Below, in pieces: positions 6,547 through 54,194 of a DNA stretch of 64,000 nt. Positions within the stretch are counted from its first letter, which is position 1. Each line of letters opens with the position of its first letter. Source of the DNA: Patescibacteria group bacterium (GTDB lineage Bacteria; Patescibacteriota; Minisyncoccia; Phycocordibacterales; Phycocordibacteraceae); contig JAHJYC010000003.1 of NCBI GenBank assembly GCA_018826905.1, positions 36,963-100,962 on the forward strand. The letters are read 5' to 3'. A program made the position numbers and the translations under genes. Under the pieces are notes generated by a model that was not told where the DNA came from, did not search any database, and worked only from the letters and a program-made list of their open reading frames with translations.

Positions 6547-7926
6547 TTACGCTTCGTCTCTTGCTTCCTCAGCGTCAGACACGCTTTCATTGCCATCATC
6601 TGTCTGTGTTGTCTCCTCTTCCATAGACAGGGTGTTGTTCGCAGGAGCTTCTTCTGTAACTACAGACTCAGATTCTGTTGGGTCAATACCAGCTGCAACA
6701 GCAGGGTCCATATCCTCAGCTGCTTCAGTAGCGGCAACAGATTCGTCAGACGCACCCTCAACTGCAGCGGCATTTCCTGAGTCAGCAACGCTTTCGCCAC
6801 CTACTGCTGCGATATCAATGTTCCAGCCAGTAAGCTTTGCGGCGAGTCGTACATTTTGTCCGCCTCGTCCGATAGCAAGTGACTGCTGATCTTCAGATAC
6901 GGTCACTGTTGCACGGTGTCCTTCCTCGTCTATCTCAACATCAAGCACTGTTGCAGGGGAGAGAGATTCTTTAATAAAGGCTGCCTGGTCTTCAGACCAC
7001 TCAATAATATCAATGCGCTCTCCGCCAAGGGCGGCCATAACGGTAGACACACGAACTCCACGCTGTCCGACGAGTGATCCAACCGGATCAACATGTGGAT
7101 CAAGAGAAGCAATCGCAATCTTTGTACGGCTTCCTGGTTCGCGCGCGAGACCCTTTACTTCAATTGCGCCAGAAGCTAGTTCAGGCACTTCCATCTCAAA
7201 CAGGCGAGTGAGGAAGCGAGGGTGACTGCGTGAAAGACGCAGGTACACACCGCGGAATCCCTCGTCTACTGCATAGAGGTAAGCACTGATGCGCTCTCCG
7301 GTGCGGTAGCGCTCTCCTGGGATCTGCTCCTCGTAGGGAATGATTCCTGTCGCGCGTCCAAGGTCCACAAAGATAGCGCCGCGCTCAGCGCGCTGCACAA
7401 TACCGGTAACGATTTCACCCTTCTTGTGACCGAACTCGTCCAGGATAGAAAGCTTCTCAGCTTCGCGGATCTTTTGAATAACCACCTGCTTTGCTGTCTG
7501 TGCTGCAATACGTCCAAAATCATCCTGTGGCTCAAGAGGGAAGATAAGTTCTTGTCCCACTTCAGCGTCGCGCTTAATACGCTTCGCGTCTTCAATAAGG
7601 ATGTGCTTCTCAGCATCATAACGAGGAAGTTCTCCCTCAGCGACAACCTCCTCTCGTTCGTAGTGAGGGTGTGCTTCAGGAAGCTCCTCTTCTCCCTCTT
7701 CAGGGAAACGCACCATCGTGTCGTCCACAATAGTTTTTACTTGTTCAAATGACACAGTTCCTGTGTCCATATCAAGCATGCCGCGTACTACCTGTCCGCG
7801 CTTCCCGTACTCCTTCTTGTAGGCAGTAGCCATGGCCTGCTCAATAGCATCCACCATAGTTTCCTTGGTGATGCCACGCTCTTCAAATTCTCCGAGCACT
7901 GAGTTGATTGTTTTTAGATCCAACAT
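6547..7926 (-). CDS. nusA: transcription termination/antitermination factor NusA with acidic C-terminal extension
   Basis: 459 aa; N-terminal NusA domain, S1, two KH domains (SLAIGRGGQNVRLAAKLTGWNIDI); D/E-rich tail. Confidence 0.9.
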   Translation of the reverse strand: MLDLKTINSVLGEFEERGITKETMVDAIEQAMATAYKKEYGKRGQVVRGMLDMDTGTVSFEQVKTIVDDTMVRFPEEGEEELPEAHPHYEREEVVAEGELPRYDAEKHILIEDAKRIKRDAEVGQELIFPLEPQDDFGRIAAQTAKQVVIQKIREAEKLSILDEFGHKKGEIVTGIVQRAERGAIFVDLGRATGIIPYEEQIPGERYRTGERISAYLYAVDEGFRGVYLRLSRSHPRFLTRLFEMEVPELASGAIEVKGLAREPGSRTKIAIASLDPHVDPVGSLVGQRGVRVSTVMAALGGERIDIIEWSEDQAAFIKESLSPATVLDVEIDEEGHRATVTVSEDQQSLAIGRGGQNVRLAAKLTGWNIDIAAVGGESVADSGNAAAVEGASDESVAATEAAEDMDPAVAAGIDPTESESVVTEEAPANNTLSMEEETTQTDDGNESVSDAEEARDEA

Positions 7927-8197
7927 ACTTCTCTGTATTTAGTTGTTCGCACTATAGATGATTGTAATCGCACAGGGCTTTCTTAAAAAGAAATGCCCGC
8001 GGGAGCGGACAATTCAGATAGGCAAAAGGTACCATTTTAGGAGGGAAGGGTCAATAAGGGACTTGACACATATATTAATATATGTACTACTGTGTCCAGG
8101 TCCGCGTATATGGAACCTAGTTTCCTTACAACTCACACCAGTGACTTGTAGAGCATTGTTCTTTGCAGTCACATCGCCTCAAGGAGGGGCAAAACAC

Positions 8198-8614
8198 ATG
8201 CGTACCACCGGTTTCAACACCTGGATGCAGAACAAGAAGGTCCAGACGGCCGCCGTGGCCGCCTGTAGCCTGATCCTCGGCGCCGTCGGCCATGCGATCA
8301 TCACGCCCGAGCCGGTCATCGCCGCCCCGCTGCCCGTCGAGTTCCGCGTCGGTCCCGGCGAGAGTCCGGCCAAATACGTCGGGAACATGACGGCCATCGC
8401 CCTGGGCGATGCCTGCAAGCTCCCGATCTATCTGGGTCAACAGCAGATCCGCAACCATGAGATCACGGCGCAGGAGGCCCGTGGCCACATGGCCGTTACT
8501 CGGAACTTCACCGACATCGTCCAGATCACGGTCGGCGTCCATCCGGACGCCAGGTTCCAGATCGTCGGCTCGACCATCACCTGCCCCGACGGCACCGTGG
8601 TCGGCGAAGGCTGA
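8198..8614 (+). CDS. high-GC (~65-70%, GC3 ~90%) small secreted protein, 138 aa, two Cys; no recognisable family
   Basis: ATG at 8198 preceded by aaggagggg SD; signal peptide MRTTGFNTWMQNKKVQTAAVAACSLILGAVGHA; sharp GC jump relative to flanks; own terminator. Confidence 0.6.
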   Translation: MRTTGFNTWMQNKKVQTAAVAACSLILGAVGHAIITPEPVIAAPLPVEFRVGPGESPAKYVGNMTAIALGDACKLPIYLGQQQIRNHEITAQEARGHMAVTRNFTDIVQITVGVHPDARFQIVGSTITCPDGTVVGEG

Positions 8615-8640
8615 TCTGCGACTGACTGCTACAAGAAAAA

Positions 8641-8682
8641 GCGCCCCGCAACTCCGGTTGTGTGGGCGTTTTCCTTTTTCAT
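8641..8682 (+). terminator. rho-independent terminator of the high-GC cassette
   Basis: gcgccccgcaactccggttgtgtgggcgttttcctttttc. Confidence 0.65.
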
Positions 8683-8735
8683 ACACATATATAGGTACGA
8701 GTGAATTGAGGGTGCTGCGTTATACTTTCTAAAGC

Positions 8736-10490
8736 ATGCAGGTATCTGAAAGCGAACTCAAAGAATTCATTCTTGATTCCGGACTTGTTCCTCGGAAGGA
8801 TGTTGAGGCTGCAGACGAGGAGGCAAAGAAGAAGAAACAATCTCTTGGAGATATTCTTATTGCCCAAGGTGCGCTCTCCACTGATTCTTTGCGACGCATT
8901 AAAGCATATGTGCTCGGTATTCCGTTCGTTAATTTGAAGGATAGGAAGATTCCTTTGGAAGTACTCTCTCTTATTCCTGAACCAATTGCTCGCACGCACT
9001 CCATCGTTGCCTTCCGCAAAGGAGAAGGAGAACTTGAGGTGGCAATGCTAGATACAGAAGATTTGCCTGCGATTGATTCCGTGCGTAAGACAACAGGACT
9101 TAAGATTCAGGCGAGGCTTACAGACGAAGACTCTCTGAAGAATGTTCTTTTGCAGTACCAGAAGTCTTTGAAGGAAGAGTTCGGCGACCTCATTTCAACT
9201 GAAGCAGGGAAGATTAACCTTATAAAGGATGCAGTTGAGGGAGACGAGACCTCTGGAGAGGATCTTAAGAAGATGGCTGAGGATCTTCCTATTGTACGTA
9301 TTGTTGATACTTTGCTCCGACACGCCATTATTCAGAAGGCATCTGACATTCATATTGAGCCAATGGAGCACGAGGTGTTGGTGCGGTATCGTATTGACGG
9401 TGTGTTGCATGATGCTATGACCCTGCCACGCACTGCTGCAGCTGGTATTACCGCTCGTATTAAAGTGCTTGCGAACTTGAAGCTAGACGAGAAGCGTCTT
9501 CCACAAGACGGACGATTCAAGATGGAAACGGAGACGGATAAGGTCTCGTTCCGTGTGTCTATGCTCCCTACGTATTTTGGAGAGAAGATCGTTATGCGTT
9601 TGCTTCGCGAAACGGGAGAGGGCTTTACCCTTGATGTGCTCGGGTTTCATGGAGATTCCATGGAGCGTATCCATAAGGCAACAAAAGCATCAACGGGACT
9701 CATTCTTATTTCAGGACCAACAGGATCAGGAAAGACAACAACCCTCTATACCATTCTGGATATTTTAAATACTCCTGATGTGAACATAAGTACCGTTGAG
9801 GATCCAATTGAGTACCAGATGAAGCGAGTAAATCAGACACAGGTGAACCCTGCGATTGGGTTTACCTTCGCAAATGGACTCCGTTCTCTCGTTCGTCAGG
9901 ACCCAGACGTTATTATGGTAGGAGAGATTCGTGACGGTGAGACTGCGTCACTTGCGATTAACGCTGCACTTACGGGACACTTAGTGCTCTCAACCATTCA
10001 CACTAACTCAGCAGCAGGTGCAATCCCTCGTCTTATGGATATGGGGGTTGAGCCCTTTCTTCTCGTGTCTACACTTCGCGTTATTGTGGGTCAACGACTT
10101 GTGCGTAGACTGTGCGATGGAAAGGAGCAGTATTCGCTAGATGCTGAAGAGCGCGCAAAGGTTGCAGGTACTGACAAGTTTGATGCAGTACTCAAGGCAC
10201 TCACAGACGAGAAGCTTGTAAAGGCAGGAAGCGGACTTGATGACGTGCCGTTCTATAAACCAACTCCTTCAGCTCAGTGTGAGGATGGATATTCAGGACG
10301 TATTGGTATTCATGAAGTACTCTCAGTCACTCCAACCATTCGTGATTTGATTTTGCATAATGGAACAACTGACGCTATAGAGGAACAGGCACGCAAAGAG
10401 GGCATGCTTACTATGCTTGAGGATGGAATCTATAAGGCAACAAGAGGAGTTACCTCAATTGAAGAGGTATTGCGTGCTGTTACGGAGTAG
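8736..10490 (+). CDS. pilB: type IV pilus assembly ATPase PilB (GspE family)
   Basis: 584 aa; N-terminal GSPII_E_N domain; Walker A GPTGSGKTTT; Asp and His boxes; ...VGEIRD... Confidence 0.9.
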   Translation: MQVSESELKEFILDSGLVPRKDVEAADEEAKKKKQSLGDILIAQGALSTDSLRRIKAYVLGIPFVNLKDRKIPLEVLSLIPEPIARTHSIVAFRKGEGELEVAMLDTEDLPAIDSVRKTTGLKIQARLTDEDSLKNVLLQYQKSLKEEFGDLISTEAGKINLIKDAVEGDETSGEDLKKMAEDLPIVRIVDTLLRHAIIQKASDIHIEPMEHEVLVRYRIDGVLHDAMTLPRTAAAGITARIKVLANLKLDEKRLPQDGRFKMETETDKVSFRVSMLPTYFGEKIVMRLLRETGEGFTLDVLGFHGDSMERIHKATKASTGLILISGPTGSGKTTTLYTILDILNTPDVNISTVEDPIEYQMKRVNQTQVNPAIGFTFANGLRSLVRQDPDVIMVGEIRDGETASLAINAALTGHLVLSTIHTNSAAGAIPRLMDMGVEPFLLVSTLRVIVGQRLVRRLCDGKEQYSLDAEERAKVAGTDKFDAVLKALTDEKLVKAGSGLDDVPFYKPTPSAQCEDGYSGRIGIHEVLSVTPTIRDLILHNGTTDAIEEQARKEGMLTMLEDGIYKATRGVTSIEEVLRAVTE

Positions 10491-10570
10491 CTAGCCAAGC
10501 TACATTTTCATGCTATTGTGCGCTGGTCGCACGAAAGAAGCACCGGGCTTCTCGCGACAGGGAGGTACCA

Positions 10571-10927
10571 ATGAGTAAGGTGTTTGTTGGAATCCTGGTG
10601 TCCGCGTTTTTGGGCGTCATCGTCTATTCGCTCGGCGCCCACTACTTCGGCACCGCGATCATGCCGGGCGGTGAACAGCCGAGTCTGTTCGCGCCGACGC
10701 TGCAGTGGCTGGTCGCCGCGGTGGGAGCGGTCGCCATCTACATGGCGGCCGACGTGGTCGCTTCGGGCGTGCTCGCCATCATCCTGTTCGTCGTCGCCCT
10801 CGTTGTGGGCGGGACGCTGCAGGTCGGCTGGGAGTCCTGGCTCTGGGCTGCTGTCGCTGCCGCCATCGGCGCCACGCTCGGCAACCTGTTCGTTCCGGTT
10901 CAGCGCGGGACCGTGAGCGCCCAGTAG
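10571..10927 (+). CDS. high-GC small polytopic membrane protein, 118 aa (3-4 TM), unknown family
   Basis: gggaggtacc SD 5 nt before ATG; GC3 nearly all G/C; hydrophobic segments VGILVSAFLGVIVYSL, LVAAVGAVAIYMAADVVASGVLAIILFVVALVVGG, LWAAVAAAIGATLGNLFV. Confidence 0.55.
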   Translation: MSKVFVGILVSAFLGVIVYSLGAHYFGTAIMPGGEQPSLFAPTLQWLVAAVGAVAIYMAADVVASGVLAIILFVVALVVGGTLQVGWESWLWAAVAAAIGATLGNLFVPVQRGTVSAQ

Positions 10928-10971
10928 TCGCGCTTGCACTGCCGCATTTGTGACGGGACGCGGCGCATATC

Positions 10972-11013
10972 GAGCTGAGACTCTTCTTCGGAACGTCTCA
11001 GCTCTTTTCTTTT
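10972..11013 (+). terminator. rho-independent terminator of the cassette
   Basis: gagctgagactcttcttcggaacgtctcagctc hairpin + ttttctttt. Confidence 0.65.
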
Positions 11014-11032
11014 GCATGCTACGATTATGTAC

Positions 11033-12244
11033 ATGAAATTTCGTGTCACCGTTAAGACCGCAGAGGGGAGCGAGGAGAAGCGAGTCGTTGAAGCAGCGTC
11101 TCGCTTTGGTGTGTACTCTGAAATAGAAAAAGAAGGAGCAACAGTGCTCTCTGTTGAAGACGGTGCGGGGACAAAGATGCCGAAGTGGAGTGAGATAACT
11201 ATCGGAACAGGAGTGAAGATGGATGAGCGGATTACGTTTACCAAAAACTTGGCAGCAATGATCTCTGCTGGACTCACACTCTCGCGTGCACTCTCTGTTA
11301 TTGAACGCCAATCAACAAACAAGGCACTGAAGAAAATTGTTATAGACCTTGAGGAGCGAGTGAAGAAGGGAGATGCATTCCATGAAGCACTGGCCGGGCA
11401 CTCAAAGGTCTTCTCTGAACTCTTTATTGCGATGACTAAGGCGGGGGAAGAGTCTGGAACGCTTGCGGAGTCGCTTACGGTTGTGGCTAGTCAGATGGAT
11501 AAGGCCAATTCGCTTCAGAAGAAAGTGAAGGGTGCGATGATTTACCCGTCTATCATTCTGTCTGCCGTGGTGGTGATTGGTATTCTTATGCTTATTTATG
11601 TAGTGCCAACACTTTCAAATACATTTAAGGAACTTGGAGTGGAGTTACCAGCTGCCACGAAAGCAATTGTGAATACCTCAGACTTTATGGCAAACAATGT
11701 TGCCTTGGTGTTCGGACTCCTTATTGGCTTCTTTGGAGGGCTCTATTTCTTCCTTAAATCCAAGGTGGGGGGAAAGACACTTCTGTTCGTGTCTTTACGT
11801 CTTCCTATAATTGGGGAGCTTGTAAGAGAAACTATGAGTGCGCGTGGTGCTCGTGCACTCTCATCCCTCCTTTCTTCAGGGGTAGAAATGTTATCTGCAC
11901 TTAAAATCACAAGTGAGGTAGTGGGAGATAATGTGTTTGGAAAAGTGGTTGATGAAGCATCTGAGCGAGTACGAAAGGGAGAAGCACTTTCCGCTGCGTT
12001 CACCGATCATCCAAAGCTGTATCCTATTTTTGTTGCAGACATGATTGCTGTTGGAGAAGAGACAGGAAAGGTTGCAGACATGTTGGGACAAGTTGCGCAG
12101 TACTACGAGACTGATGTAGAAGATCGTACGAAAGACCTCTCAACAATTATTGAGCCAGTGCTCATGCTTGTTATCGGAACGGTTGTAGGTATCTTTGCGA
12201 TGTCTATGATTTCTCCGATCTACTCTCTCTCGGACAAGATTTAA
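11033..12244 (+). CDS. pilC: type IV pilus assembly platform protein PilC (GspF family)
   Basis: T2SSF-like domains with three TM segments; ATG start chosen at MKFRV... (the ORF track begins at an upstream TTG). Confidence 0.85.
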   Translation: MKFRVTVKTAEGSEEKRVVEAASRFGVYSEIEKEGATVLSVEDGAGTKMPKWSEITIGTGVKMDERITFTKNLAAMISAGLTLSRALSVIERQSTNKALKKIVIDLEERVKKGDAFHEALAGHSKVFSELFIAMTKAGEESGTLAESLTVVASQMDKANSLQKKVKGAMIYPSIILSAVVVIGILMLIYVVPTLSNTFKELGVELPAATKAIVNTSDFMANNVALVFGLLIGFFGGLYFFLKSKVGGKTLLFVSLRLPIIGELVRETMSARGARALSSLLSSGVEMLSALKITSEVVGDNVFGKVVDEASERVRKGEALSAAFTDHPKLYPIFVADMIAVGEETGKVADMLGQVAQYYETDVEDRTKDLSTIIEPVLMLVIGTVVGIFAMSMISPIYSLSDKI

Positions 12245-29009: not shown

Positions 29010-30041
29010 GTGTATAATTATCCGAATGGGAACACTCGGTCCGAAACGAGCACCAAAGACATGATAACGAATGATCTGTACTCCAAAATTCTCCTAGAAC
29101 CCGCCGAAAGGGGAGGCGATGAATTGTTTATTGTCAGCGGATATGCGTCTGCCACATTTGCAAGACGTCACTTAAAAGATTTGTCTGAACGCAAAGAAGA
29201 CACAAAAATAAACCTAATTATTGGGATGCCAAAGAATACGGTGGACCATAATGCCTATTTACAACTGCACACTGAATTTGGCAACAGGTTTCGTGGCTAC
29301 TACCTGAAGTCAACGCCACCAGTCCATAGTAAAGTGTTCACTTGGTTTAATTCAGGCAAACCTCAAGAGGCATACAGCGGTTCTGCCAACTATAGTCAGT
29401 ATGGCTTTTTTGAGGACAAGCAAAGAAACCAGATGGTTAGTGACAACTCTATAGAAATAAAAAATTTCTTTGATGATCTGCTGAGTTCATCCATATTTAT
29501 GCCGCATGCTGAGATAGATAACTCAGCAGTCTTCTACAGGGTACAGAAAGTTCATGGAAGTGTACCGGCAGGAGGCGTAGAGTGGATAGAGTTAGGGAAA
29601 ACAGTGAGAATTAGTTTCCTAGATAAAAAGGGTATGTTGCCTCCAGTTTCAGGACTGAACTGGGGACAGAGGAAAGAGAAGAGAATAAACAAAGGAACGG
29701 GTGAAGTAAAATATGTGCTACGAGAAAAGAACCAAGCGTACTTGAGTTTAAAGGGTGATGTTAGAGAAGAAGGTTTCCTTCCTAAGATGGCATATAACTT
29801 CACTTTACTAACCGATGACAACGCTTCCTTTGATTGCGTAGTTGCACAGGAGGGCAGGAAAGCAATTCATTCTACAAATGACAACAGTGAACTAGGTAGG
29901 TATTTTCGTAAAAGACTAGGGCTTGAGCCAGGAGCTTTTGTTACAGTTGAAGACTTGGAGCGATACGGAAGAACCGACTATACTTTGTCTAAAATTGACG
30001 ATGAGAACTTCCTATTGGATTTTTCCGTAAAGCCAAATTAA
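29010..30041 (+). CDS. Type II restriction endonuclease, phospholipase-D (HKD) superfamily, BfiI/NgoFVII-like, with C-terminal DNA-binding region
   Basis: DELFIVSGYAS... and HSKVFTWFNS...GSANYS correspond to BfiI TLYLISGFSN... / HAKLYG...SSGNFT (HxK...GSxN); more likely start is ATG 29060 (MITNDLY) downstream of a TGTATAAT -10 at 29011-29018; 3' end overlaps the convergent MTase by 4 nt. Confidence 0.65.
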   Translation: MYNYPNGNTRSETSTKDMITNDLYSKILLEPAERGGDELFIVSGYASATFARRHLKDLSERKEDTKINLIIGMPKNTVDHNAYLQLHTEFGNRFRGYYLKSTPPVHSKVFTWFNSGKPQEAYSGSANYSQYGFFEDKQRNQMVSDNSIEIKNFFDDLLSSSIFMPHAEIDNSAVFYRVQKVHGSVPAGGVEWIELGKTVRISFLDKKGMLPPVSGLNWGQRKEKRINKGTGEVKYVLREKNQAYLSLKGDVREEGFLPKMAYNFTLLTDDNASFDCVVAQEGRKAIHSTNDNSELGRYFRKRLGLEPGAFVTVEDLERYGRTDYTLSKIDDENFLLDFSVKPN

Positions 30042-31135
30042 AAAATATCGTTTTTAATTTCTTCAATAGAGAATTTAGAATCTACCGACGGGTAAGGGAT
30101 CCCTGCAAAAGTCTTAAGAACAGCTTCTACAATTATTTTTGCACCAAGCGGAGGTACCGCCATGCCTATTTGCTTTCTTACACTCTCCTTTGGGCCTTTA
30201 AAAATAAAATTGTCAGGGAAGCTCTGTATTCGGGCCCTTTCGCGGTTTGTAAGTGCACGTGGTTCTATCCAGTGATACACATGTGTGCCACCACCTCCGC
30301 TTCCTGTGATTGTGTAAGATGGCTTATTGGGATCAAGACGCTTATAAATTTGGCTCATCTTAGCTCCTTTGACATTAAGTCGAAGATGTTTAGGGAGACC
30401 TTCATACCACGCGTTTTCGCCGGCAGGAATATGCAAAAGACGTTCAATTACGTGAGTAGCTTGCTTAGTGTGTTCATTATTGGACACTTCTTTGGGTATT
30501 GGCGGCTTCTCAAGGGCCATCTTTGCTGTGACAGGTTTATTCTTTGTGGTTGGAGCAGGAATTCTGAACTCAAGTCCTTGGTCTTTTCTTATCCCAATAA
30601 TTACAACGCGGTGCCTTTGTTGAGGAACGCCATATTCCTCGAATTTATATAGATGAGGGTATAGATTGTATCCCTTACCTGCAGCCTGAAGATCGGTAAG
30701 AATTTTCTTAAAGGCCTCACCTCCGTTTGCGCTCTGTAGACCGCCAACATTTTCAGCAAAAAACCATAGAGGGTTATGTTCATTTATTGCTTTTACACCA
30801 TATGTATAAAGGGGACCATATTTGCCGTTAAATCCTTTCTGCTTGCCAACTAAACTGAAATCGTTGCATGGAAAACCAAAAGCCAAGGCATCAAATTTAG
30901 GGATTTTTTTGAAATCAACTTTTTCAACAGGGCCACAGAAGACTCTTTTCTGGTTACCATGATGTATGTTTAACGCGTATGTTTGGCAGGTGTCCTCATC
31001 AATATCATTGGCCCAAACTGGAACTACCTTATACACAGCATTGCCTTTTTTCACCTCTGCCATGGAGGCGCCAAGACTTAGACCGCCTGGGCCACAGAAC
31101 AGCTCGGCAAAACGGAATTCTACCTTCTTTTTCAT
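30038..31135 (-). CDS. DNA (cytosine-5)-methyltransferase
   Basis: Motif I FCGPGG, motif IV PCNDFS, motif VI ENV, C-terminal motifs; start taken at MKKKVEF. Confidence 0.9.
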   Translation of the reverse strand: MKKKVEFRFAELFCGPGGLSLGASMAEVKKGNAVYKVVPVWANDIDEDTCQTYALNIHHGNQKRVFCGPVEKVDFKKIPKFDALAFGFPCNDFSLVGKQKGFNGKYGPLYTYGVKAINEHNPLWFFAENVGGLQSANGGEAFKKILTDLQAAGKGYNLYPHLYKFEEYGVPQQRHRVVIIGIRKDQGLEFRIPAPTTKNKPVTAKMALEKPPIPKEVSNNEHTKQATHVIERLLHIPAGENAWYEGLPKHLRLNVKGAKMSQIYKRLDPNKPSYTITGSGGGGTHVYHWIEPRALTNRERARIQSFPDNFIFKGPKESVRKQIGMAVPPLGAKIIVEAVLKTFAGIPYPSVDSKFSIEEIKNDIF

Positions 31136-31185
31136 AATAAGAATCCTAGCACTATAGTAATAATTTTGCAGCAACGAAATTTAAG

Positions 31186-32380: not shown

Positions 32381-32632
32381 ATGACCAAGACACAGACCAA
32401 AGAAGAGGTCTTCAACTTCATGAACCGTCTGGGCCTGATCATCGCCATCACGGGTGTTCTGGTGATGGTGCCCGGCGCCTATCTGACCCTCCACGTCGCC
32501 TTCTTCGGCGTCGCGGACCCGGCCGTCACCGGCGCCCTCATCTTCGGTTCCTACCTGGGTGGCGGCGCTACGCTGGCCGTCGGGCTGGCCCTCAAGGGCA
32601 TCGCCTGGGTCACCCGCTTCGGCTGGCACTGA
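32381..32632 (+). CDS. high-GC small 2-TM membrane protein (83 aa)
   Basis: gaggaggg SD; MTKTQTKEEVFNFMNRLGLIIAITGVLVMVPGAYL...; GC3 biased. Confidence 0.5.
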   Translation: MTKTQTKEEVFNFMNRLGLIIAITGVLVMVPGAYLTLHVAFFGVADPAVTGALIFGSYLGGGATLAVGLALKGIAWVTRFGWH

Positions 32633-32770
32633 CCACGTGTCTTTCTTCAAAGACACAGAACTCGGAAGAGCTCTGGACATCCTCGGCGCCGTGATCATCA
32701 TCGCCGTGGTGTCGCACCCTCTGTTCCAGGGATGGTTGGTTTCAGTCGTGAGCTGAACGAACACAAAAGG

Positions 32771-32815
32771 GCTCGGACCGCAGCGATATGCGTGGTCCGG
32801 GCTCTTTCTCTTTAC
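32771..32815 (+). terminator. internal terminator between the two cassette genes
   Basis: gctcggaccgcagcgatatgcgtggtccgggc 9-bp stem + tctttctcttt. Confidence 0.5.
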
Positions 32816-32889
32816 ATATATGGGTTCTGGGAGTACTTTTTCAGTTCAACTGAAGTCCTTTCAGTTGGAAGTTCAAGGAGGGAAGAGAG

Positions 32890-33099
32890 ATGTCGCTTAA
32901 GAAGATGCTTGGTGTTCCGGTGCTGATTTCGGCCGGGCTCGCGCTCATCATCGCTGCCACCAATACGATCGCACATGCAGGTGGCGCGAAGACGCCCGAA
33001 GACCAGCTGGTGATCGCCTTCGGTCTCGGCGTCGGGATCTGTATCCTTTTCGGTGCTGGTTTTCTGGCCGCCTGGCCGAAGAATCCTCAGCAGCCCTGA
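32890..33099 (+). CDS. high-GC small 2-TM membrane / secreted protein (69 aa)
   Basis: aaggagggaagagag SD; MSLKKMLGVPVLISAGLALIIAATNTIAHAGG... Confidence 0.5.
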   Translation: MSLKKMLGVPVLISAGLALIIAATNTIAHAGGAKTPEDQLVIAFGLGVGICILFGAGFLAAWPKNPQQP

Positions 33100-35385: not shown

Positions 35386-35415
35386 CAAAACCGCCTCAGT
35401 AAGGGGCGGTTTTGT
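35386..35415 (+). terminator. rho-independent terminator after fusA
   Basis: aaaaccgcctcagtaaggggcggttttg. Confidence 0.65.
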
Positions 35416-36058
35416 GCTACGGTGTACCTATATGACCAAACGAACTAAAGCTTTCCTTGCTGTTTTTGTAGTAGTTGCCCTTGGTGCGTACGGATATTTG
35501 TATTGGTGGGCAAATACTCCAGAGCACGGAGTCTTTGATTCTATCCCTATCGTGCGTGAGGTGTCGGACTCTCTTTCAAAGGGAGTAGTGCGTACTCCAG
35601 TTGTTGAGGAAGAGGCAGTAGTAGAAGAAGAGGAGAGTGTTCCTGTTGATACACAGACCTATAAGACATATGAGAACACTACGCAGAAGTTCAGCTTGGA
35701 CTATCCGGACACTTGGATTCCAACCGTTACGAACATAGACGGTGTTATGACGCTCTGTATCACTGATACTGAAGCAACGGGCCCTTGCATGCTTACCGTT
35801 GAGAGCGAAGCAGAGGGTGTGAATGTGAGCGAGGAGAAGACTTATATTGCGCTTAAGGCTGAGTACCGCGCTGGCAAGCTTACTGAGCTTGAGCGCGCTG
35901 TTGGCGGAGAGATGGGACGATTGCTCCGTATTTCAGGAGAACCAACAGTGAGTCGTGTGGTGGTATTCAGTCACGAAGGACGTGTCTACACTGTTTCAGC
36001 CCTTGAAGGACAGGAAACTGTATTTGATCGGGCAACTGAGTCCTTTAGATTCCAGTAA
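35414..36058 (+). CDS. hypothetical membrane-anchored protein (likely start ATG 35432, MTKRTKAFLAVF...)
   Basis: Single N-terminal TM, acidic linker EEEAVVEEEE, beta-rich C-domain; unusual position between fusA and tuf. Confidence 0.5.
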   Translation: MLRCTYMTKRTKAFLAVFVVVALGAYGYLYWWANTPEHGVFDSIPIVREVSDSLSKGVVRTPVVEEEAVVEEEESVPVDTQTYKTYENTTQKFSLDYPDTWIPTVTNIDGVMTLCITDTEATGPCMLTVESEAEGVNVSEEKTYIALKAEYRAGKLTELERAVGGEMGRLLRISGEPTVSRVVVFSHEGRVYTVSALEGQETVFDRATESFRFQ

Positions 36059-48452: not shown

Positions 48453-48944
48453 GTGAGAAAGATGTTCTTTGCGGGGGCTCTTGTCCTTGCACTTTCCGCC
48501 TGCGACAGGAACACGGACAACAATCTGCGGTACGAAGTTTCCGTGGACTACCGTGAGCCTGTGGGCGCCGTGGTCAGGGAGCTCGGCCTTAACACGGAGG
48601 AAGTGCCTGTGTACGAGGTCATGAACCGCAGCAGGCATGGAGTCGGCGAAGAGCTTCGCTGGATGCGCGTGGTTCGGCATCGGGAGCTGAAGGACACCTA
48701 CAGCCCCAAAAACGGGTTTCACCCGGCCGATACGCGCGAAATGCTGGCGTTCTACGCCACGCACCCCCAGGCAGTGCCTTTCAAAGGGCTCTGCGCTCCG
48801 GGCGAGCAACTGCCGCTTGGGGAAGGGGTGATCGGCGTGCCGGTTATCACGCGCGCAGGCAATCTCGGCATTTCCGCCCATGGCTGCAAGAAGCCGGGCC
48901 GTCGCGTGCTCGTGGTGCGAGATTTCGGCCGCACGCAGCCCTGA
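48453..48944 (+). CDS. high-GC lipoprotein (~163 aa), unknown family
   Basis: aaggagg SD 5 nt before GTG 48453 (alternative ATG 48462); lipobox LVLALSAC; GC3 nearly all G/C; own terminator. Confidence 0.55.
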   Translation: MRKMFFAGALVLALSACDRNTDNNLRYEVSVDYREPVGAVVRELGLNTEEVPVYEVMNRSRHGVGEELRWMRVVRHRELKDTYSPKNGFHPADTREMLAFYATHPQAVPFKGLCAPGEQLPLGEGVIGVPVITRAGNLGISAHGCKKPGRRVLVVRDFGRTQP

Positions 48945-53589: not shown

Positions 53590-53612
53590 TACTTATTTGG
53601 TACTATTATCTT

Positions 53613-54194
53613 ATGGAACAACTTTCGTACAGCAACGTACTTCTTATGGGCCGTCCTGGGTCTGGGAAGGGGACACAAGCAAAGCGTCTTGCAGAGAAGT
53701 TTGGATGGGAACACTTTTCTACGGGAGATCGGTTTAAGATACTTCGCGACGAGGACAGCGAGATCGGAAGAAGCGTACGTGAAGCGTATGACGCAGGGAA
53801 ACTGCTTCCTGATTGGTTTGCAACGTATCTTTTTGAAAGCGTTGTTTTGTCTATGAGTCCTGAGAAGGGACTTGTATCTGAAGGGTACCCTCGTTCCCTA
53901 GGACAGGCAGAGATATTTGATGAGATTCTTTCATGGCTAACCCGCCCATATAAGGTCTTGGATCTTGCTGTTTCTGATGAGCTTGTAACAGAGCGCATGC
54001 TTCTTCGCGCAGAGACGGAACACCGTCCTGACAGCGCAACAAAGGAGCAGATTATGGCTCGCCTTGCGACCTACGAAGAGCACACTGCTCCTGTGCTTGA
54101 TTTCTTTAGAGAGAGAGGGCTCCTTGTTTCAATAGACGGAGCTCTTTCTCCTGACCAGGTTACCGAAGCAATTCTAAGAGAGCTCTCTGCATGA
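53613..54194 (+). CDS. adk: adenylate kinase
   Basis: GRPGSGKGTQ P-loop, NMP-binding and LID regions. Confidence 0.9.
   Translation: MEQLSYSNVLLMGRPGSGKGTQAKRLAEKFGWEHFSTGDRFKILRDEDSEIGRSVREAYDAGKLLPDWFATYLFESVVLSMSPEKGLVSEGYPRSLGQAEIFDEILSWLTRPYKVLDLAVSDELVTERMLLRAETEHRPDSATKEQIMARLATYEEHTAPVLDFFRERGLLVSIDGALSPDQVTEAILRELSA

Follow-up and report, generated by a model that had tools for sequence, protein, structure and literature searches.

Between pilB and pilC, two neighbouring genes of the type IV pilus operon, the genome of a Patescibacteria group bacterium (assembly GCA_018826905.1) carries a compact, GC-rich unit encoding a 118-amino-acid (aa) membrane protein without detectable relatives outside its own lineage. 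The unit lies in a 64,000-nucleotide (nt) stretch of contig JAHJYC010000003.1, hereafter the window, and we refer to the gene as x118 and to the unit as the cassette. A preceding interpretation made from the letters of the DNA only, the sequence-only reading, had described it as the product of an insertion event. The evidence presented here makes it reasonably probable that x118 is an accessory envelope gene of moron-like character that has moved by homologous recombination, and not a fresh transposon insertion; we put this forward as a structural and evolutionary description. The cassette is one of a set of GC-rich orphan envelope-gene cassettes located at core-operon junctions of this lineage.

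The pilB–pilC junction (bases 10491–11013) forms a sharp island of 62–70% GC in a genome and window of 48.5% GC. In the GC profile, values of 0.58–0.70 are reached only in 200-nt windows starting at 10500–10800, the flanks are at 0.44–0.50, and the junction is one of the four main GC islands within the 64 kb. Pfam matches identify the bordering genes (Table 1) as that for a T2SSE ATPase followed by that for a T2SSF platform protein, which is the arrangement of a type IV pilus pilB–pilC pair; together with the GC profile and the GC content by codon position, they confirm that a GC-rich gene is wedged between pilB and pilC. The sole credible open reading frame (ORF) inside the island is x118, and a long antisense ORF (10508–11311) is a by-product of high GC. 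The GC content of x118 is 0.66, with values of 0.67, 0.46 and 0.86 at the first, second and third codon positions (GC1, GC2 and GC3), compared with a median GC3 of 0.45 (standard deviation 0.08) for the ORFs of the window. We considered the hydrophobic amino acid composition of the protein as the source of its high GC and rejected it, because native membrane proteins have a normal GC3: SecY, with a grand average of hydropathy (GRAVY) of 0.99, yet has a GC3 of 0.46. The highly expressed native gene tuf reaches only ~0.57. Directly observed as they are, these values show x118 to be compositionally foreign, deviating from its neighbours both in overall GC and at third positions.

To place this junction among its relatives, we use a PilB-guided scan of species-representative genomes, which yielded 80 loci (related loci carry L-numbers, L001 being the window genome), with pilC locatable and its synteny with pilB conserved in 78. 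The closest relatives of the window genome are metagenome-assembled genomes labelled Paceibacterota, Parcubacteria or Kaiserbacteria. The two genes are separated by at most 25 nt in 52 of the 78 loci, many of them overlapping; the spacer measures 32–123 nt in 11 loci and exceeds 250 nt in 15. Adjacency is thus the norm, as the sequence-only reading had assumed, and the 539-nt spacer of the window is therefore an insertion relative to the normal state. Empty sites occur in close relatives, with spacers of 23 nt in L011, 32 nt in L034 and 65 nt in L010 and an overlap of the two genes in L012; the short spacer that excision of the unit was expected to leave resembles the first three. The sequence-only reading had further allowed that related genomes might carry the same gene with a host-like composition, or that pilB–pilC spacers might normally be this long. 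Instead, the gene is GC-rich and of non-native composition in the relatives, and long spacers are not the norm.

The content of the slot is variable. In L008, L009, L013, L017, L027 and L088, it encodes small proteins of 110–133 aa with four transmembrane (TM) helices, and each of these genes has a Shine-Dalgarno (SD)-like GGAG ahead of it and a terminator-like hairpin behind it; Smith-Waterman comparison with shuffles and hidden Markov model searches found no homology of these proteins to x118 or to each other. The slot of L020 encodes a hydrophilic protein. Other contents were read by eye. L021 (7557–9628) and L036 (8747–9927) contain two minus-strand ORFs, of 94 and 73 aa, that resemble a RelE/ParE-type toxin with its antitoxin, along with other small ORFs, and L084 (3828–4738) contains a 231-aa minus-strand ORF that resembles a Y1 transposase of the type associated with IS200 insertion sequences (IS) and repetitive extragenic palindromes, flanked by palindromic AAAATACCCGACGTCGGACGTCGGGTATTTT repeats.

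A word-indexed search among 5.8e9 proteins retrieved four clusters at 90% identity, namely x118 itself and clusters at 88%, 85% and 68% identity, and an exhaustive search with a profile, covering 1.84 billion representative proteins, added only a 112-aa paralogue, P0008, from L005; neither search found a homologue outside the sister genomes of this Patescibacteria lineage. The orthologues (62–88% aa identity), from L002, L003/4, L005/6 and L007, are all GC-rich and all located in the pilB–pilC slot. Because at least three sister species share the cassette in the same slot, an insertion that is recent and private to this genome does not hold. In L005 and L006, two units lie in tandem, encoding proteins of 112 and 118 aa that are ~37% identical; the ~90 nt with which each unit of the L005 pair ends, stop codon to terminator, show 100% identity, a sign that the flanks have recently recombined or undergone gene conversion. 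The junction between these units (L005 7404–8456, and likewise in L006) repeats the pilB stop region (ATAGCT-CTAGCCA). The flank motifs of the cassette recur nowhere else in the window and in none of the other slots of 93 loci. Scans with the 3' motif of metagenome contigs and of IMG/VR viral contigs, and with the 5' motif of metagenome contigs, gave zero matches, a weak negative given that the Joint Genome Institute contig of L002 that contains the 3' motif was missed as well and is evidently absent from the collection.

The histories of the cassette and of its flanks are observed to be discordant. We compared the window, L002 and L005 using composition-corrected F81 distances at 4-fold sites. 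Between the window and L002, the distance is 0.19 for x118, against 0.83 for pilB and 0.77 for pilC; between the window and L005, the corresponding values are 0.34, 0.77 and 0.82, and between L002 and L005, 0.45, 0.61 and 0.58. The silent sites of the cassette are two to four times less diverged than those of the flanks. Across the whole unit (522 aligned columns), the window and L002 are the closest pair in 1000 of 1000 bootstraps, whereas in pilB, pilC and nusA the closest pair is L002 and L005 (975–996 of 1000). Three-point branch lengths make the window lineage the shortest for the cassette and the longest for the flanks, and for this reason a speed-up of L005 alone cannot explain the discordance. 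Two further cassettes in the window also depart from their flanks: the silent distance of cassette 1, located between nusA and pilB, is 0.18 compared with ~0.77, and that of cassette 4 (x163), located between rplE and rpsN, is 1.16 compared with 0.42–0.83. Judged by these silent sites, the divergence of the cassettes does not fit strict co-divergence with the flanks, and the pattern at pilB–pilC argues for exchange of the cassette between sister lineages.

Composition provides a hint at the source. A tree of PilB joins the window group first to L090, its sister, and then to L008 and L027. GC-rich relatives are L090 and L088, in which the GC3 of pilB is 0.70 and 0.76, respectively, and that of the slot gene after pilB 0.84–0.85; both carry the family of cassette 1 (57% identity) in the nusA–pilB slot at a GC3 of 0.94–0.95. 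Only the first 132 nt of the slot gene of L090 are present, because the contig stops there. Third-position singletons in x118 comprise 19 GC>AT changes versus 5 AT>GC, with pilB balanced, and x163, the most diverged of the cassettes, has the lowest GC3 (0.66–0.75). From these observations and the analogy with cassette 1, we infer, and favour, an import from a GC-rich pool inside the family, after which the cassette slowly lost GC.

The predicted anatomy of the cassette is that of a complete transcription unit (Table 1). The extended −10 motif ahead of x118 is kept as TGCTATTGT or TGGTATTGT in L002, L003, L007 and both L005 copies, and motifs of this type also precede other genes of the window; its conservation suggests promoter activity. 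The 5' untranslated region (UTR) may be structured: the RNAalifold consensus of five sequences contains 11 pairs, of which 6 are invariant, 4 have changes on one side and 1 has changes on both, and in one of the four pairs with one-sided changes a sequence breaks the pairing. The single-sequence fold energy of this region is no better than that of shuffles (z = −0.7), and we regard the structure as a weak lead. The gene has its own SD sequence, as had been claimed. The terminator, with the arms GAGCTGAGAC and GTCTCAGCTC at 10972–11004 followed by TTTTCTTTT, has a predicted fold energy of −22.2 kcal/mol (z = −3.5), in silico agreement with its earlier description as strong. The motif of the 3' hairpin that precedes it was found only in the pilB–pilC slot of L001 and its sister genomes. 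A search of bases 7900–11100 against Rfam returned only a chance match to a microRNA (E = 0.33). At the left edge of the slot, a short hairpin, GTAGCTAGCCAAGCTAC, at 10487–10503 shares bases with the pilB stop codon and precedes ATTTTC; it appears in a scan for terminator-like structures and is not conserved in L005.

The heptamer CATGCTA occurs in the same orientation on either side of the island, at 10509–10515 and 11015–11021, and these repeats had been taken as the mark of an insertion event. Eight copies are present in the window where 8.6 are expected by chance, so the repeat is statistically unremarkable. The downstream copy sits in TTTTGCATGCTACGAT, with the core TGnTAnnnT, as part of a predicted pilC promoter, TGCTACGAT, 6–9 nt before ATGAAA; among the related loci, 17 have a TGnTAnnnT motif 6–9 nt ahead of the pilC ATG, and these include L010, L011 and L034, where the slot is empty. 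Since empty sites, too, have the promoter to which the downstream copy belongs, the two heptamers do not form a target-site duplication. The repeat is also degenerate in sister genomes: the downstream copy reads CGTGCTA in L002 and L005/L006, and the upstream copies read TATGGTA and TGTGGTA in L005. The insertion reading consequently stands in its substance, a unit added to a compact junction, and falls in the mechanism and timing that it proposed.

The same promoter bears on the expression of pilC. The pilC start, ATGAAATT, comes after the conserved −10 element, and no SD sequence is found there in the relatives; mechanical ORF calling places the start at 11012 and 11027, and the ATG at 11033 is conserved as a start in 17 relatives. 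On this comparative evidence, pilC probably starts at 11033 rather than at 11012 or 11027 and lacks a leader, and its own conserved promoter would largely answer the worry that the cassette terminator cuts off pilC. Elsewhere in the window, extended −10 motifs (TGnTAnnnT) 6–9 nt before ATGs that lack an SD sequence are also found at 35410–35435 and 53593–53615, which suggests leaderless mRNAs for other genes besides pilC.

The x118 protein has four hydrophobic segments (residues ~4–24, 43–60, 63–84 and 89–108; GRAVY 1.29), which agrees with its earlier description as polytopic. An AlphaFold2 model built from a four-sequence alignment contains helices at residues 3–30, 40–58, 62–83 and 87–106, with low confidence (predicted local distance difference test, pLDDT, 55). 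Given that K3 and R112 are the only basic residues, the positive-inside rule suggests that the N and C termini are probably both cytoplasmic. The compared homologues have 118 codons without indels, GC3 exceeds GC1, which exceeds GC2, and dN/dS (the ratio of nonsynonymous to synonymous divergence) is 0.37–0.49 for x118 versus 0.02–0.09 for the flanking genes; by these measures x118 is a real coding gene under purifying selection, yet a fast-evolving one. An aromatic cluster, W-x-S-W-L-W, is invariant at the start of the fourth TM helix (residues 87–92 of x118; 81–86, WSMWLW, of the paralogue P0008).

Searches of Pfam, NCBIfam, PHROGs and PADLOC found no significant family for x118, and the absence of a match in PADLOC and PHROGs at E <= 0.1 does not place it in a known anti-phage or superinfection-exclusion family. 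A match to DUF7670 (E = 0.66) was dismissed as noise. The sole match in a profile search of the PDB was a 43-residue TM stretch of a FEX1 fusion chain (E = 0.006), which we judged compositional because Pfam CRCB does not match; a Fluc/CrcB fluoride channel was likewise discarded, there being no CRCB match even at E <= 1.

Table 1. Coordinates of the x118 cassette, its bordering genes and the other GC-rich cassettes in the window
Feature	Position	Strand	Basis or remarks
Cassette 1: 138-aa secreted orphan, GC3 0.87, nusA–pilB intergenic region	8198–8614	+	signal-peptide-like N-terminus
pilB, type IV pilus assembly ATPase; borders the slot on the left	8736–10490	+	Pfam T2SSE E = 5e-127, MshEN; GC3 0.42
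Predicted extended −10 promoter of the cassette, TGcTATTGT; includes most of the upstream CATGCTA	10511–10519	+	sequence
5' UTR stem-loop, GUCGC...AGAAGC-loop-GCUUCU...GCGAC	10526–10558	+	RNAalifold consensus, weak
Shine-Dalgarno sequence AGGGAGG, 5 nt before ATG	10559–10565	+	sequence; invariant across all homologous cassettes
x118, gene for 118-aa orphan membrane protein with four TM helices	10571–10927	+	ORF; GC3 0.86
3' UTR hairpin, GCCGC...GCGGC	10941–10964	+	kept in all copies
Intrinsic terminator: perfect 10-bp outer stem, 3 inner pairs and TTTTCTTTT	10972–11013	+	inverted repeat I14
Putative native extended −10 promoter of pilC, TGcTACGAT; includes most of the downstream CATGCTA	11017–11025	+	conservation
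pilC, platform protein	11033–12244	+	Pfam T2SSF E = 3e-58
rpsG–fusA cassettes: 83-aa and 69-aa TM orphans, GC3 0.87 and 0.69	32381–33099	+	flanks S7 and EF-G by Pfam
Cassette 4 (x163): 163-aa lipoprotein-like orphan, GC3 0.75, rplE–rpsN	48453–48944	+	LSAC lipobox

The other cassettes show individual features of note. Cassette 1 has its own TTGACA promoter-like site and terminator and is absent from L002, where the site instead contains a short hairpin with TTTTCC behind it. In the str operon, an rpsG terminator and a promoter-like TTGACA-N17-TATGTT site are found ahead of the rpsG–fusA cassettes, and a possible third ORF of 39 aa with a single TM helix is present at ~32637–32756. Within the spc operon, x163 lies between rplE (L5) and rpsN (S14) and is itself conserved at this position in GCA_018826945.1 and GCA_018827225.1, and TTGACA promoter-like sites follow both the rplE terminator and that of x163. 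The window also contains a low-GC island (~0.41) at 29010–31174 with genes for an NgoFVII-type restriction endonuclease (Pfam E = 5e-33) and a C-5 cytosine DNA methylase (Pfam E = 1e-73), an accessory region whose compositional sign is opposite to that of the GC-rich cassettes.

By analogy, the closest known architecture to that of the cassette is the phage moron, a gene with its own promoter and terminator and a deviant GC content that is placed between adjacent genes of an operon (PMC3594210). Like morons such as HK97 gene 15 (Juhala et al. 2000; PMC3594210), the cassette has a deviant GC, lies between genes that are adjacent in relatives, encodes a small inner-membrane product and is present or absent among close relatives; it would be an autonomous unit, with a strong predicted terminator and a conserved extended −10 motif that a −35-dependent promoter scan did not list. 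Unlike morons, it resides in a cellular chromosome and in a pilus operon without prophage context, has sister cassettes in the str and spc ribosomal operons and shows no sequence or family relationship to them, its likeness to exclusion genes being one of analogy. Morons are genes of phage or prophage genomes; for the cassette, there were no PHROGs matches, and none of its flank motif in viral contigs.

Three other systems share some of these traits. Flexible genomic islets are exchanged by homologous recombination in the core flanks of naturally competent bacteria, and the cassette resembles them in its conserved core flanks, in the variable cargo of a fixed slot, in its discordant history and in having no mobility genes. 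It differs as a ~0.5-kb single-gene unit with a full set of predicted expression signals, uniformly GC-rich and encoding a small envelope orphan. Integron cassettes are likewise small insertable units with a single, often orphan ORF, and the tandem pair in L005 adds to the likeness; unlike them, the x118 unit has its own predicted promoter and terminator and comes without an array, an attC-like site, an integrase or attI. No GTT core is present in 10928–11026, a stretch whose palindromes are limited to the 3' hairpin and the terminator, and no integrase was seen among the window ORFs, though not every ORF was checked by Pfam. Pilus inhibitors of the PfsE type are small inner-membrane proteins, as is the x118 product encoded beside pilB and pilC, and the aromatic cluster WxSWLW superficially recalls the YAWGW cluster needed for binding of PfsE to PilC, which we note as a lead only. 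PfsE is much shorter than x118 and has a single TM helix, unlike the four of x118; the two are not homologous, and an interaction of x118 with PilC would be pure conjecture. PfsE binds PilC, and Aqs1 and Tip bind PilB, all of them small phage-encoded inhibitors that shut down pili (PMC8764522).

Of the alternatives to recombination, the one closest to the original interpretation is that a transposable or site-specific element, such as a miniature inverted-repeat transposable element, an IS or an integron-type cassette, landed in the junction and duplicated CATGCTA as its target site. We consider this very improbable, and it is already largely refuted by the sequence comparisons. The heptamer does flank the island in direct orientation, an 11–12 nt likeness of TTTTCATGCTA to TTTGCATGCTA could be a decayed duplication, and other mobile DNA uses the slot, as the IS200-like gene of L084 illustrates. 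However, the downstream heptamer is part of the pilC promoter and is conserved at empty sites too; the repeat is imperfect or absent in sister genomes that contain the same cassette and occurs at chance frequency in the window. The cassette ends lack terminal inverted repeats, the unit contains no transposase or integrase gene, its only credible ORF being that of the membrane protein, its 3' region has no GTTRRRY core site, and no further copy of the flank motifs turns up in the window or elsewhere in 93 loci, with zero matches in the metagenome and viral scans. Descent from a phage or plasmid of this lineage, as a remnant or as cargo (a true moron), or capture from the GC-rich host of this probable epibiont is an improbable origin as well, if less so. 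The definition of a moron agrees with the predicted promoter and terminator, the deviant GC and the position between adjacent operon genes; the exclusion protein HK97 gp15 is small and located in the inner membrane (PMC3594210), and phage proteins that target PilB or PilC exist (PMC8764522). Against such an origin, there are no phage genes nearby, the neighbours being nusA, pilus genes, tpiA and pgk; the cassette ORF has no PHROGs or PADLOC match, the flank motif has zero matches in IMG/VR viral contigs, and no x118 homologue was found beyond this Patescibacteria lineage among 1.84e9 representatives.

Several points weigh against the account of an imported and exchanged cassette. The three-genome comparison is unrooted, and a slowdown of the cassette in the window lineage, or constraint on its silent sites, could mimic recent exchange. 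The polarity of the GC>AT changes is ambiguous for those on the L005 branch. No GC-rich genome with an x118 homologue was found, the donor being proposed by analogy with cassette 1, and slot genes exceed the core GC3 also in some GC-rich relatives (L088, L090 and L008), an excess that could come from a GC-favouring force. A sigma-70 scan that requires a −35 element did not list the proposed promoters of the cassette and of pilC, and the structural model of x118 is too poor to back any functional analogy. A further alternative is an old, vertically inherited and fast-evolving accessory gene of the pilus operon, the high GC3 and low silent divergence of which result from selection on codons or mRNA structure or from GC-biased gene conversion, not from foreign origin. 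The genes for 110–133-aa proteins with four TM helices do recur in this slot across a clade whose PilB proteins are as little as ~79% identical, the slot genes lie above the core GC3 in L088 (0.85 vs 0.76–0.81) and in L090 (0.84 vs 0.70), a force maintaining GC3 would lower the apparent synonymous divergence as well, and the UTRs of the cassette are well conserved. We nonetheless regard vertical descent as unlikely. The slot proteins have no detectable mutual homology, the slots are empty in the close relatives L010, L011, L012 and L034, and the closest pair of genomes differs between cassette and flanks. Moreover, the third-position bias of 19 to 5 implies that the x118 sequence is off compositional equilibrium, the silent divergence of cassette 4 is higher, not lower, than that of its flanks, and highly expressed native genes of the tuf type reach a GC3 of just ~0.57.

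We therefore return to a moron-like envelope gene that moves by homologous recombination, for which the following course of events can be proposed. The genome that hosts the slot would be that of a Patescibacterium of the Parcubacteria/Paceibacteria type, and the unit, comprising an extended −10 promoter, a structured 5' UTR, an SD sequence, the ORF and a terminator, would occupy a variable slot between pilB and the pilC promoter as a self-contained entity. Its product is predicted to be a lineage-restricted orphan protein of the inner membrane with four TM helices. The GC-rich codons would stem from a GC-rich pool, the likeliest donors being GC-rich sister lineages of the same family that have envelope genes in the same slots. 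The cassette has no mobility machinery or terminal repeats of its own, and transfer between related genomes would take place by homologous recombination in the conserved core flanks, probably after DNA uptake, which in Patescibacteria has been proposed to be mediated by pili and competence (PMC12455944). We infer this mechanism from three observations: the core flanks are conserved, the histories of cassette and flanks disagree, and the 3' flanks are identical in the L005 pair. Once imported, the cassette would slowly lose GC in its low-GC recipient, and pilC would be insulated from the cassette terminator by its own conserved promoter, which likely gives a leaderless mRNA.

As to function, x118 may be a strain-variable envelope factor at or near the pilus platform, for example one that excludes pilus-dependent phages or modulates PilC. 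This is an unlikely enough guess to be labelled as such, and we prefer it among functional ideas because of the position of the gene and the analogy with morons and superinfection exclusion. Somewhat less doubtful, albeit still speculative, is a broader proposal, namely, that the cassettes represent an undescribed class of "chromosomal morons". These would be GC-rich units of 0.3–0.6 kb, each with a promoter, an SD sequence and a terminator, that encode small orphan membrane proteins, secreted proteins or lipoproteins, are located in core-operon junctions (pilB–pilC, nusA–pilB, rpsG–fusA and rplE–rpsN) and are passed on, through transformation and recombination guided by the flanks, between species that differ in genomic GC. 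Together they would form a shared, fast-evolving envelope pool, within which the pilB–pilC slot would hold interchangeable proteins with four TM helices that tune or protect the pilus machine.

Patescibacteria have tiny genomes and are thought to need pili for host attachment and DNA uptake. If the account given here is true, exchangeable, compositionally foreign single-gene envelope cassettes in their most conserved operons (pilus, str and spc) would show by which route, and through which class of genes, these bacteria can vary their surface rapidly. Leaderless genes behind extended −10 promoters would affect start-codon calls and operon predictions in this group, and the cassettes would supply testable candidates for host interaction or phage exclusion among proteins that otherwise defy annotation.

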